Below, piece by piece: positions 27,219 through 54,119 of a stretch of DNA of 64,000 nucleotides (position 1 is the first letter of the stretch; every line of letters starts with the position of its first letter). The notes beneath the pieces were generated by a model that was given only the letters and a program-made list of their open reading frames with translations, was not told the DNA's origin and made no database searches. The position numbers were made by a program, and so were the translations under genes. Source of the stretch: Armatimonadota bacterium (GTDB taxonomy: Bacteria > Armatimonadota > UBA5829 > JAUSEB01); the NCBI GenBank assembly GCA_030649165.1, contig JAUSGG010000034.1, positions 4,546-68,545 of the forward strand. Reading direction: 5' to 3'.

Positions 27219-27898
27219 ATGGTCTTTCTCCTGATTGGAATTGCCGCGGGCTATTGATCCACGCAGGTTCCTCCAAGCAAGCCGAGTCAGGTTTCCGCGG
27301 CCAAACTCACGCCTGAGGAACTGGGGCTTATTAAAGCGCAGACAGAGAACAACAAAGCACAAGCTCAGTAAAATAAGTTACTAGTCCAAGAGTTAGAGGA
27401 AAAGCCCAAGCCTAAGCCCCCCAAGCCGACCATCACGCGGAAAGTATTGGCGCTTTTAGCGTAAGAGTTCAGAAATGGAGAGAACTTTCACCCTCACCCT
27501 AACCCTCTCCCTCAAGGGAGAGGGGATTACGCTCGTCGTCTCCCGAAAGTGAGCAGCGAAGAGATACGTACTCACCAAGCCTGAACTCTTACCTTTTAGC
27601 AGGTATTCCGGGATGGGGCATGTTTATTGCTGCTATCGTTGCTATTGTCACTTTTGGCTTGAACTATAGGGTCACGCTAAGAAGCCAAAAGGACACACAG
27701 TTTTATGAAGCCCTCAAGCGTTTTGGTGATGAGGACAGTCCCTGCGTTCGTTGCAGCGCCGCGGGTCTCTTGGCGCAACTGGGTTCCACTCCGGTGTGGG
27801 AACCCAAGTTATGGCGGCGACCAATCGTTGGGTGGTTTCGGACATCTCGCTCACACTATCAAACTGCTTTTGATCAGCTCTTTGCGGGCTCAGCGTGA
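27219..27898 (+). pseudogene. Degraded membrane-anchored protein gene interrupted by a MITE
   Basis: One frame from ATG 27219 with stops at 27255 and 27369. Removing 27461-27600 rejoins KVLALLAGIPGWGMFIAAIV..FYEALKRFGDEDSP.VR.SAAGLL in frame. Confidence 0.75.
27461..27592. mobile_element. MITE-like element, 132 bp
   Basis: Perfect TIR GTAAGAGTTCAG / CTGAACTCTTAC; TSD CTTTTAGC at 27453-27460 and 27593-27600. Confidence 0.92.
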
Positions 27899-28018
27899 GC
27901 ACGAAATTGTTCGGGAAAAAACGAGAATTCTCCTCGTGCGCAACCGTACGAGCGAACTGTGCTTTGATATCGGAAGGGCCAGGGGGATGCAGCTTCAGCG
28001 GCAACCAACAACCAACAA

Positions 28019-28774
28019 CTAACCACTCCGCCCAACGACTCTGCCAATCACCCATTCCATCGCCCTGACCGTGTCCTCGTAGCTGGCGCGGTGGCCGGCC
28101 GCGGGGTCGTGGAGCATCAGGACGCCGCGGCCCAGTTGCTTGAGCTTCTCGGCGAGGCGGAGGACGCTTTGCGGGGGGACGGATTGGTCCAAACCGCCGC
28201 AGGTGAAGGAGATGGGCATCGTGAGCCTTTCGGGGAAGAACTCCGCACTGCGCTTCTCGTATTCGCGCGGAACTTGCCCTTTGGTCCCGCCGAAGGACTC
28301 CGCGATGTCGTCCTGGTAGTTGGCGAACTCGACGTGGTTGGCTGTGGCTTTCTGGCTGCAGACGCCGTCGATCATCTCAGGGTGAAGGACGGCAAAGGTC
28401 AGCGCGGATGAGCCGCCCATGGACGAGCCGACGAGGATGAGTTTTCCGATTCGGTAATTGCGGCGCAGCTCTTCGATGATCTGGACAAGGTCCGCCTCGG
28501 CCTTCGGCCCCATCCAGGAGGTCGCCGCGCGGTAGTCCGGCGAGACGAAAAGCAGCCCGTGCCTCGCGGCGGTGTCCCGTGCGCCCCGGCACTCGTTGAT
28601 GTCACTTTGAACGTACTGCCAGCGATCCCCGCCGTGACCGTGCAGCGCGATCAAGAGGTGGATTTGTTTTGCGGGGTCAAAGCCGCGCGGGCGCATCTCG
28701 ACGTATCGCTGCGAAGAGCCGTCTACTTTCGCCGTGAAGGTCATATCGACGGGATCTGAGAATTCGTGTGTCAC
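28019..28774 (-). CDS. Alpha/beta hydrolase (esterase / S9-like)
   Basis: LHGHGG oxyanion segment, GSSMGG nucleophile elbow, GGLDQSV, AGH; no clear RBS. Confidence 0.85.
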   Translation of the reverse strand: MTHEFSDPVDMTFTAKVDGSSQRYVEMRPRGFDPAKQIHLLIALHGHGGDRWQYVQSDINECRGARDTAARHGLLFVSPDYRAATSWMGPKAEADLVQIIEELRRNYRIGKLILVGSSMGGSSALTFAVLHPEMIDGVCSQKATANHVEFANYQDDIAESFGGTKGQVPREYEKRSAEFFPERLTMPISFTCGGLDQSVPPQSVLRLAEKLKQLGRGVLMLHDPAAGHRASYEDTVRAMEWVIGRVVGRSG

Positions 28775-28879
28775 AGCTCAAGTTTACCAGATGCGGTCTT
28801 ATCACGAAAGGACGAAAATGCGAAGGGGAGTTCGCGGGGAAGCTGTCAGCCGTCAACGGTCAGCCGACGCCTGGGTGTG

Positions 28880-28919
28880 CTTCGGCAGCGTCGCTGCCGC
28901 TCTGCTACCGAAGGATCGG
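28880..28919. repeat. 40-bp REP-like unit CCGATCCTTCGGTAGCAGAGCGGCAGCGACGCTGCCGAAG
   Basis: Identical at 28880-28919 (-), 53686-53725 (+) and 56647-56686 (+). Confidence 0.9.
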
Positions 28920-29091
28920 AAGGGGGAGGAATTGGGCGGATCGGTCGGATCGGACTGATCGGACTGATCAACCGCCAACCAATAACCAACAACTAACAAC
29001 CACCCATCACCCTCCGATGTTTTGGCTTGCGTAATGGCTGGGTAATCAGAGAGCAAGCCAGTTTAGCCGAATTTGGAGGAAGGTGACGGTT

Positions 29092-30075
29092 ATGGCCTCG
29101 CGAATGAGCACGGCGCTCAGGCAGGAGGAGCCGGAAGTCGAGCAGCTCGAACTGATATCCATCGTGATCCCGGCGTACAACGAGGAGGAGAGTATCGAGC
29201 CGCTGTACAGGGAGCTCGTAAGCTCGTTGTCGGCGACGGGCAGGCCGTTCGAGATCATCTTCATCAACGATGGCAGCACGGACGGTTCCCACGGCGTCCT
29301 GCGAAGGATTTGCCAGAGCGATCCACGGGCGCGGAGTGTGCGGCTCAGACGCAATTTCGGCAAAGCCGCCGCGCTGGCGGAAGGTTTCAGTGAGGCGAGG
29401 GGTTCGATAATCATTACTATGGACGCCGACCTGCAGGACGATCCGGCGGAGATACCCAATTTTCTTGCAAAGCTGGACGAGGGGTTCGATCTGGTCTCCG
29501 GCTGGAAGTTCCGCCGGCTCGACCCGATAGGGAAGACGCTGCCGTCGAAGTTGTTCAACAAGGTCGCGGCTATGACGACCGGGGTGCGTCTCCACGACTT
29601 CAACTGCGGGTTCAAGGCGTATCGCCGGGAGGTCTTGGATCACGTCAAGGTCTATGGCGAATTGCACCGTTACATCCCCGCTCTGGCCTACGGCAATGGG
29701 TTCGTGGTCGGTGAACTCAAGGTCAACCACCGGCCCCGGAAGTTCGGGAAATCCAAGTATGGCATTTCGCGATTCACGCGGGGCCTTCTCGACCTGCTTA
29801 CAGTGCTTTTCATAACGCGATATACCAAGAAGCCGCTTCACCTGTTCGGGTCTATGGGGCTGTTCCTTTTGGCGATTGGGTTTGCCGTCAATGGGTACCT
29901 GGCCGTGTTGTGGACGATGGGATACGGCATCGGACACCGGCCTCTCCTGACCCTGGGCGTTCTCCTTATGATCCTCGGCATTCAGTTTATTTCAACTGGC
30001 CTGATGGGGGAGATGATGGTCCACATGCAGCGCAAGGACGACACGCGCGCCGAGGGCAGAGCGGTGAGGGACTGA
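29092..30075 (+). CDS. GT2 polyprenol-phosphate glycosyltransferase (GtrB/ArnC/DPM1-like)
   Basis: IPAYNEE, DGSTD, RNFGKAAAL, MDADLQDDP, DFNCGFKAYR, two C-terminal hydrophobic helices. Confidence 0.9.
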   Translation: MASRMSTALRQEEPEVEQLELISIVIPAYNEEESIEPLYRELVSSLSATGRPFEIIFINDGSTDGSHGVLRRICQSDPRARSVRLRRNFGKAAALAEGFSEARGSIIITMDADLQDDPAEIPNFLAKLDEGFDLVSGWKFRRLDPIGKTLPSKLFNKVAAMTTGVRLHDFNCGFKAYRREVLDHVKVYGELHRYIPALAYGNGFVVGELKVNHRPRKFGKSKYGISRFTRGLLDLLTVLFITRYTKKPLHLFGSMGLFLLAIGFAVNGYLAVLWTMGYGIGHRPLLTLGVLLMILGIQFISTGLMGEMMVHMQRKDDTRAEGRAVRD

Positions 30076-30129
30076 GCGCTGAGTGACCCCACCCTCCCTG
30101 AAGGTGAAGGGAGTCCGGAGGAGCAATGC

Positions 30130-52845: not shown

Positions 52846-52874
52846 ATCATACCACGAAACAGTGGGTTTCACAA
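52846..52874 (-). promoter_or_regulatory. sigma70-type promoter of the SpoIIE gene
   Basis: TTGTGA, 17-bp spacer, TGn-TATGAT on the minus strand. Confidence 0.6.
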
Positions 52875-52890
52875 CAGACTCAGTCGGAGG

Positions 52891-53048
52891 GTAAGAGTTC
52901 AGAAATGGAGAGAACTTTCACCCTCACCCCATTCGCTGCGCTCAGGGCAAGCTCTAACCCTCTCCCTCAAGGGAGAGGGGATTACGCTCGCGTTCTCCCC
53001 GGGGGTGAGCAGCGAGAAGAGTCGTACCGACCATTCCTGAACTGTTAC
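52891..53048. mobile_element. MITE-like element, 158 bp
   Basis: TIR GTAAGAGTTCAG / CTGAACTGTTAC; TSD GTCGGAGG at 52883-52890 and 53049-53056. Confidence 0.92.
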
Positions 53049-53304
53049 GTCGGAGGAGGGCGGAGGTATGAGGTATGAGTCATCCGTGCCGGTGCGCGAC
53101 ACGCATGGGGATGGAATCGGTTGCGGTCCGGTGCGGGAACTGACTTCGATGATGTCTGAGACCTGATTGCACAAGGCCGTTCCCGCGGGATAGGTAAGGC
53201 GGATCGATTATAAGTGAGGGAGTTGGGCTTTGGTTTTGCCGCCTGGTTCAAACCCCATGTGTCAGGGAAACCTGATAATGAGAATAGTACGGAGGTCAAG
53301 TCCA

Positions 53305-53577
53305 ATGTCTGCCGTTACGGACCTGCTGCGAACAGTAAGAATCAAGGTTGGCCTGCTCGCCGACCACCGAGTCAGCGGGCTGGACGTGAATGTGGATGTG
53401 GACGGAGGAGTCGCGCGACTGTCCGGAACAGTTCAGAGCGAGGAGCAGAAGCAAACGGCCGAGGAAATAGCCGCCTCGATCGAGGGTGTGGTGGAGATCG
53501 AGAACGACATTGTTGTGGCTTCATCTGAGGAGCGGACGGAGAGTTTAGAGGAGGGCGGAGCCTGCTTTGGGTACTGA
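53305..53577 (+). CDS. Single BON domain protein
   Basis: GGAGG RBS; LDVNVDVDGGVARLSGTV....A..IA..IEGV..IENDI; no signal peptide. Confidence 0.85.
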   Translation: MSAVTDLLRTVRIKVGLLADHRVSGLDVNVDVDGGVARLSGTVQSEEQKQTAEEIAASIEGVVEIENDIVVASSEERTESLEEGGACFGY

Positions 53578-53595
53578 GACGGTTGACGGACGAAC

Positions 53596-54109
53596 GTAAC
53601 AGTTCAGAAATAGCAAGTACGTGCCGCTGAGTGTCATTTCGAGCATCCGACCTCGACACACGGGGTTATTTCGGAAAGAAACCAACCGATCCTTCGGTAG
53701 CAGAGCGGCAGCGACGCTGCCGAAGGACGCACAAGTACGATCCCCGGTGTTTCGAGATTTGAGGGTTGGGCTTCATACTCGCGCAGTTACAGCACAACCT
53801 CCCATCCCAACCCGGAAATCCCGAAACCGGGCGCTTCCTTCGTGCAGCATTGCCTAAATATCGTCGCATAGTCCGGAACCTCCCCCTAACCCCCTCCTAA
53901 GAGGAGGGGGGAATACTCCCTCTCCTTCCAGGAGAGGGTTGGGGTGAGGTTATTACGTCATCGAACTTATGAACTGAGGTACTTAGGAACGGAGCGTTAG
54001 CGGAGTCGAGAAATCTGCCTTTGAGCGTGGCGCAACCGGATAAAGCAGATTCCTCACTACGTTCGGAATGACGTTGCCCGATAGGCGCTCACCATTTCTG
54101 AACTCTTAC
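53596..54109. mobile_element. Composite MITE-like element, 514 bp
   Basis: 16-bp TIR (15/16) GTAACAGTTCAGAAAT / ATTTCTGAACTCTTAC; TSD GGACGAAC at 53588-53595 and 54110-54117. Confidence 0.92.
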
Positions 54110-54119
54110 GGACGAACCC

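Follow-up and report, generated by a model that had tools for sequence, protein, structure and literature searches.

A 64,000-nucleotide stretch of an Armatimonadota genome (assembly GCA_030649165.1, contig JAUSGG010000034.1, positions 4,546 to 68,545 of the forward strand; hereafter the window) carries four complete and two partial copies of a family of short repeats. They are very probably miniature inverted-repeat transposable elements, or MITEs, of the IS66/ISBst12 type that were moved in trans by a DDE transposase encoded elsewhere. The complete copies are 132-514 bp long, and a tblastn search with two matching transposases found nothing in the window; movement in trans is proposed because the elements have no coding capacity. 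Four hallmarks of MITEs were found: small non-coding units, terminal inverted repeats, duplications of fixed length that are specific to each site, and ends in common with an autonomous insertion sequence (IS). At about one element per 10 kb, this is mobile DNA of an expected kind, a real and well-characterised MITE family that is not surprising in kind.

Terminal repeats and target duplications

Element A, an A-type MITE of 132 bp, occupies positions 27461-27592 (27453-27600 with its duplications; none of the copies is assigned a strand) and lies between two copies of CTTTTAGC at 27453-27460 and 27593-27600. Element B, a B-type MITE of 287 bp, occupies 32697-32983 (32689-32991 with duplications) between copies of CGTCTTCG at 32689-32696 and 32984-32991. 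Element C is again A-type, 158 bp long, and is found at 52891-53048 (52883-53056) with GTCGGAGG at 52883-52890 and 53049-53056. Element D, the longest at 514 bp, spans 53596-54109 (53588-54117) with GGACGAAC at 53588-53595 and 54110-54117. Exact 8-bp direct repeats therefore bound four of four complete elements, with a different sequence at each site. Because the chance of an exact 8/8 match at a fixed position is 4^-8 per element, this result is not attributable to chance. An earlier note on this DNA had located the same four elements, each with its own exact 8-bp repeat, and direct reading of the sequence bears this out; by tblastn, none of them encodes a transposase.

The same note had assigned ends of the form GTAA[G/C]AGTTCAG to all four elements. 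This holds for A, C and D, in which the motif is present in inverted orientation at both ends, and fails for the left end of element B. The right end of B is canonical (GTAACAGTTCAG), and its left end is the variant GAATGGGTTCAG (also given as GAATGGGTTCAGTTTCGCGGGAAT), which matches the canonical sequence at 8 of 12 positions. The perfect terminal inverted repeat is 12 bp long, and imperfect pairing continues out to about 22-26 bp. With up to two mismatches allowed, the terminal 12-mer occurs 14 times in the window (nine exact) against 4.4 expected, and none of 100 shuffled sequences reached 14. A relaxed end pattern gave 11 matches in the window compared to 0.46 in shuffles, and 10 of the 11 were element ends.

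The two half elements that had been noted also proved real. The first, at positions 1-110, is a B-type element of which the window start leaves only the right-hand part; it ends at 110 with the variant terminus, which on the reverse strand reads GATTGAGTTCAG (also given as GATTGAGTTCAGTTTCAAGGAAATGTCATTCC). The second, at 23081-23284, is a rearranged copy in which an A-type right part (23166-23284) is joined to a hairpin module (23081-23165) that is otherwise present only inside elements B and D. The A-type part has 97% identity to the right 119 bp of element A; its right end is canonical (23273-23284), and the left terminus is missing. The intact duplications together with this pair of nearly identical copies suggest fairly recent movement.

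Related loci in other genomes provided a larger sample. One genome per species was scanned for GTAASAGTTCAGRMWTGG, which yielded at least 95 loci, mostly in long-read metagenome-assembled genomes (MAGs) of Dehalococcoidia and in a few Armatimonadota MAGs. Scanned with the end characteristic of the Armatimonadota copies, metagenome contigs gave, among the matches listed, further MITEs with exact duplications as well as the autonomous element L104 discussed below. Inverted ends were then paired across about 120 related loci. Exact 8-bp duplications flanked 42 of the 76 nearest pairs, and five more had one mismatch; among 152 shifted controls none was exact and none had fewer than three mismatches. 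The exact repeat was 8 bp long in 42 cases, 9 bp in two and 7 bp in one. All 43 duplications differ in sequence, and no clear target consensus emerged. This tabulation of flanking 8-mers, which the earlier note had proposed, agrees with its view of a non-autonomous family dependent on DDE transposition. Across the loci the elements fall into two size classes, one of 132-158 bp, with a few members as long as 514 bp, and one of 1420-1469 bp. One locus in a third phylum, in an Eisenbergiella MAG (Bacillota; L025:2670-2803), holds an element of 134 bp whose 12-nt ends are the same (GTAACAGTTCAG) and whose 8-bp duplication, AAATCTTT, is exact. Three matches in viral contigs were discarded, all lying in the same unrelated low-GC coding sequence.

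Subfamilies and modular interiors

The copies in the window belong to two subfamilies, an A-type of about 132 bp and a B/D-type of 287-514 bp. Members of the A-type are elements A and C, the truncated copy at 23.2 kb and one copy in contig L047. One A-type end is GTAAGAGTTCAGAAATGGAGAG, the other is GTAA[G/C]AGTTCAGG(C/A)(T/A)TGGT(G/C)(A/G)GTACG, and the interior contains a central hairpin (CCCTCTCCC/GGGAGAGGG). In element A the left end, GTAAGAGTTCAGAAATGGAGAG, resembles a right inverted repeat (IRR), and the right end, which reads GTAAGAGTTCAGGCTTGGTGAGTACG inward, resembles a left inverted repeat (IRL). Element C corresponds to element A with an internal insertion of about 26 bp. The B/D-type is made up of the elements at 32.7 and 53.6 kb and the copy at the window start, which have a core of three palindromic modules in common. 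Element D carries this core in the opposite orientation to B, has canonical GTAA ends on both sides, and contains two more internal blocks, one of 54 bp and one of about 144 bp, that are built of G/C hairpin repeats.

The variant terminus (GAWTGRGTTCAGTTTC; also GAWWSRGTTCAGTYY and GAWWSRGTTCAG) recurs in two copies of the B/D-type subfamily in the window. Similar ends starting with GAAA or GTAT are present in the related contigs L006 and L047, where two pairs have exact or near-exact 8-bp duplications. Because it recurs both in the window and in related Armatimonadota contigs, the variant is inherited rather than a single decayed end.

The elements fold strongly (z-scores of -4.4 to -9.2). 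A search of the window against Rfam matched no family, and a promoter and terminator scan around elements C and D found nothing inside the elements above shuffle level. The G/C-rich hairpins of the MITE interiors (CCCCCTAACCCCCTCC-loop-GGAGGGGGG and CCCTCTCC-loop-GGAGAGGG) also stand alone immediately 3' of genes, at 15777-15821, 35079-35123, 38335-38379, 40496-40540 and 56552-56626, and also at 139-161, often preceded by short TGAG-rich repeats.

Intergenic location, strong folding and the presence of the same hairpins alone behind genes would also fit palindromes of the repetitive extragenic palindromic (REP) or bacterial interspersed mosaic element (BIME) kind, spread by an enzyme of the REP-associated tyrosine transposase (RAYT) type, or regulatory or terminator structures that arose in place. 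REP-type spread, however, gives no duplications of fixed length, and exact 8-bp duplications that differ from site to site flank every complete copy in the window. The 43 different duplicated sequences do not represent a conserved motif, Rfam offers no match, and an identical end architecture bounds transposase genes elsewhere. We consider an origin outside transposition exceedingly improbable.

In most respects the window elements resemble other bacterial MITEs, such as Correia/NEMIS, MITEAba12 and the cyanobacterial families. Like these, they are small, non-coding and intergenic, have inverted repeats and fixed-length duplications, occur as multiple diverged copies, have ends in common with an autonomous IS and show strong fold-back potential. 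They differ in their IS66/ISBst12 parent family and in having interiors that are mosaics of hairpin modules also found alone.

Autonomous elements with matching ends

The earlier note had proposed a search for a transposase-bearing element with the same ends, and such elements were found in Dehalococcoidia MAGs and in metagenome contigs. The Dehalococcoidia elements are 1432-1453 bp long and nearly filled by one open reading frame (ORF) of 444-450 amino acids. Its product contains the Pfam domains DDE_Tnp_IS66 and zf-IS66 and scores 274 bits against the NCBIfam IS66 model; across the matching-end elements the transposases score 230-274 bits with this model (transpos_IS66), for which the cutoff is 180 bits. 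In the sampled MAGs, Dehalococcoidia MITEs of 144-158 bp have about 31 nt in common with the left end of the IS and about 24 nt with its right end, which is the classic relationship between a MITE and its IS. At the loci sampled, these MITEs and the full-length IS copies were in different MAGs. Among the matches listed, CBDHFS01 (MAG 864dd8cd) has no full-length IS beside its 13 MITEs with exact duplications, and CAXXPD01 (MAG 373f655a) has 14 full-length IS copies and no MITE, a pattern that may not hold genome-wide.

Two Dehalococcoidia loci were more complex. The transposase clusters contain up to 841 member sequences, which points to large expansions in these MAGs. At L023:1341-4234 (CBDANN010000006.1) an element with the duplication GGTTAGCT holds a nested IS copy at 2076-3507 with its own duplication CCGCTGGT; both duplications are intact, and the nesting indicates recent activity in these relatives. 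At L070:4341-7450 (OZ250168.1) a single exact 8-bp duplication, AGGCAACA, encloses a 3110-bp unit composed of an extra IRR-like end, a gene for an AI-2E/YtvI-like membrane transporter and a full IS copy. Use of the alternative end appears to have allowed the transposase at this locus to carry a passenger gene along.

The ends closest to those in the window belong to a second clade, known from metagenome contigs. L104 is a 1545-bp element whose 468-amino acid transposase, of the IS66 family, shares 40% identity with the Dehalococcoidia enzyme and only about 26-27% with annotated IS66-family genes of plasmids, including ISH10. Its relative P0247 is 1534 bp long with the ends GTAACAGTTCAGGATGTGTGAGTACGATTTGAAG and GTAAGAGTTCAGGATGTGTGAGTACGGGG. 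Ends of this clade follow the pattern GTAA[C/G]AGTTCAGGA(G/T)(T/G)(G/T)GTGAGTACG. The A-type end GTAAGAGTTCAGGCTTGGTGAGTACG matches the L104 and P0247 ends at 23-24 of 26 positions (24 of 26 for the left end of L104), compared to 12-22 matching nt between the window ends and the Dehalococcoidia IS. A MITE from a related Armatimonadota MAG (L006:3915) tracks the left end of P0247 over 32 nt. Two peculiarities of the MITE termini are also seen in autonomous elements: the C/G alternation at position 5 occurs between the two ends of a single element, and the left end of P0244, another L104 relative, starts with GAAAC, a GAAA-type terminus.

Homologue searches gave different pictures for the two transposases, the Dehalococcoidia protein retrieving only close Dehalococcoidia-type relatives and the L104 protein retrieving relatives mostly on contigs of 1.4-2.5 kb. 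None of the samples looked up for these L104 relatives was SRR13727527, the sample of the window. A tRNA scan of the IS-bearing contigs found no complete tRNA; the start of L104 resembles the 3' half of one.

A third clade is represented by L123, from a long-read assembly, which is 1479 bp long with GTAAGAG ends and the exact 8-bp duplication GCTTGTAC. This IS (L123:2907-4385) adjoins fragments of a GH116 glycoside hydrolase gene (ORFs 524-1213, 1407-2309 and 2414-2860, all on the same strand), which suggests that the gene is disrupted. The D, D and E residues are conserved in the transposase alignment, as is a CW(A/D)H motif. Each of the autonomous elements is 1.43-1.55 kb long and has a single ORF, with neither tnpA nor tnpB.

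IS66-family elements, as ISfinder describes them, have 5'-GTAA termini and 8-bp direct repeats. The window elements have both; the TnpC-type transposase of the family is found in the autonomous elements with the same ends and not in the window itself. Canonical members (IS66, IS679 and ISRm14) are similar in that their termini start with GTAA, they duplicate 8 bp, and their DDE transposase, of the TnpC type, has a zinc finger and a motif like CwAH. They are 2.5-2.7 kb long with the gene order tnpA-tnpB-tnpC, in contrast to the autonomous elements described here, in which tnpA and tnpB are missing and one ORF nearly fills the element. Because of their single ORF, length of 1.4-1.55 kb, GTAA ends and 8-bp repeats, the partners were assigned to the ISBst12 subgroup. 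The tentative IS66 assignment of the earlier note is accordingly upheld and narrowed to single-ORF ISBst12 elements rather than three-ORF IS66.

The ISBst12 group comprises elements of about 1.35-1.9 kb in which one ORF encodes the transposase (PMC12898284). ISDge4 of Deinococcus geothermalis, a member of this group, has the ends GTGACTACTCAGCA and GTAACTGCTCAGCA, a 449-amino acid transposase and an 8-bp repeat, and its transposition in the laboratory, in a copy-and-paste manner, was reported in 2026 (PMC12898284). The candidate partners, at 1.43-1.55 kb with one ORF of 444-468 amino acids that matches the IS66 models, resemble the ISBst12 group (for example ISBst12 of Geobacillus stearothermophilus and ISDge4) in their GTAA ends and 8-bp duplications, and the ISDge4 end GTAACTGCTCAGCA agrees with GTAACTGTTCAGAC at 12 of 14 positions. 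Unlike that group, the window holds non-coding derivatives only, and the hosts are uncultured Armatimonadota and Dehalococcoidia.

An 8-bp duplication alone is not specific to IS66, and MITEs of another family that duplicates 8 bp (such as IS256, ISL3, IS6, IS1 or IS4) with coincidental GTAA ends would account for the repeats as well. Yet IS66-family transposases are encoded by all autonomous elements whose termini agree with these over 12-32 nt, left/right asymmetry included, and no other type of transposase was found between such ends in any locus examined. Derivation from another IS family is therefore very improbable. Given the partner elements and the duplication statistics, both this and the REP-like explanation are effectively excluded.

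Several observations weigh against assigning the window elements to IS66/ISBst12-type MITEs moved in trans. The left end of element B is not canonical, and the internal G/C hairpins also stand alone elsewhere in the window, so that the interiors are not specific to the family. The best-matching autonomous elements are on contigs of 1.5-3.5 kb without taxonomic assignment, and in the L104/P0247/P0244 clade no single short-read contig has matching duplications on both of its sides; the sole, indirect case in this clade is the left flank of L109, which equals the right flank of L111 (TTCCCGGC). A tblastn search detected no IS66 transposase in the 64 kb of the window, nor in any of the Armatimonadota contigs that were fetched. 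The empty site of element A, represented by an exact 28-mer of the left flank, one copy of the duplication and the right flank, was absent from the metagenome contigs. For elements C and D, the neighbourhood upstream of radA was not syntenic in relatives, whose RadA homologues are 80-86% identical and have other genes upstream.

Some of these observations fit a different history, in which the elements are true IS66/ISBst12-derived MITEs that have become fossils, immobile relics in a genome that retains no compatible transposase. Besides the missing transposase, one copy is truncated and rearranged (23081-23284), another has a divergent end, divergence and an indel separate copies A and C, and one Dehalococcoidia MAG, as noted, has 13 MITEs and no full-length IS among the matches listed. 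On the other hand, all four duplications in the window are still exact, and the 97% identity between element A and the copy at 23166-23284 suggests fairly recent copying. The negative search moreover covers 64 kb of the genome, and short-read assemblies systematically lose multi-copy IS; the Logan contig of the same strain starts beside such a repeat. A fossil family is possible, but we think it unlikely.

For elements of the IS66/ISBst12 type mobilized in trans, a matching autonomous element would be present in this genome now or would have been present formerly. By analogy with DDE transposition in general and with the ISDge4 experiment, an ISBst12-type transposase of about 450-470 amino acids, which has a coiled coil at its N terminus as well as an IS66 zinc finger, D-D-E residues and a CW(A/D)H motif, would bind both terminal inverted repeats, in which the core GTAA[G/C]AGTTCAG is conserved and imperfect pairing extends to about 26 bp. 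It would then insert the element into target DNA cleaved with an offset of 8 bp, and the 8-bp direct repeats would result when the gaps are repaired.

No IS66-derived MITE is described in recent surveys of prokaryotic MITEs (PMC10969869, PMC11602168) or was found in a full-text literature search; ISfinder was outside this comparison, and priority is not claimed. A broader proposal, which we regard as doubtful, is that a single clade of single-ORF IS66 transposases with the GTAA[G/C]AGTTCAG terminus is the independent source of unrelated MITE families in three or more phyla (Armatimonadota, Chloroflexota/Dehalococcoidia and, in one MAG, Bacillota). Each family would have gained strong G/C-rich hairpins, here grown by the nesting of modules, and would seed terminator- or REP-like hairpins into 5' regions; these would be the first described IS66-derived MITEs.

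Genomic setting and implications

All six copies, four complete and two partial, are found between genes, five of them 5' of one gene or more. Their neighbours are ordinary chromosomal genes that encode a nucleoside hydrolase, an alpha/beta hydrolase, pilin-like proteins, a TMEM260-like glycosyltransferase, a SpoIIE-GAF phosphatase and RadA. The closest matches to this RadA are proteins named as Armatimonadota. Element B is located between divergent genes, a pilin-like gene on the minus strand and the TMEM260-like glycosyltransferase gene on the plus strand, and element D ends about 120 bp upstream of the radA start. In the comparison of radA loci, a length difference of 125 bp between L098 and L099 was inspected and is not a MITE. 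Single-end matches in the other Armatimonadota contigs L037 and L038 had no transposase nearby.

Other repeats also occupy the intergenic regions of the window. A conserved motif, about 60 nt in length (GCGGGAACTGACTTCGAyGATATTCGATGAsTTGGTTGyACAAGGCCGTTCCCGC), occurs five times, at 20270-20329, 20352-20410, 31303-31362, 38248-38307 and 53130-53188. It has a closing stem (GCGGGAAC/GTTCCCGC) and no Rfam match, and could be a small structured RNA or another class of repeat. Short tandem arrays of several kinds recur at many intergenic sites (7630-7704, 7868-7932, 12115-12189 and 27032-27096; 28922-28972 and 46747-46788; 25079-25117 and 62159-62205), and consist of 10-mers (GATGAACGCG/GATAAACACG), 9-mers (GGATCGGAC) or 8-mers (TAGGTTTG). 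The ORF at 46930-49584 (minus strand, 884 amino acids) contains three tandem repeats of about 785 bp with 61-73% DNA identity and encodes a repetitive protein.

For Armatimonadota, a phylum studied mainly through metagenomes, these results document a MITE family together with the IS type that is its likely parent. ISBst12-type IS66 elements, for which transposition was only recently observed experimentally, here have non-autonomous derivatives at the density given above. The repeats appear to break short-read assemblies; in run SRR13727527, the short-read Logan contig L101 of the same strain starts some 40 bp from where one of them ends. The elements are also open to being mis-called as small ORFs. 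Their mostly 5' intergenic placement could alter the expression of neighbouring genes, and their conserved termini provide a simple probe for the family in other genomes and for a poorly studied IS subgroup.

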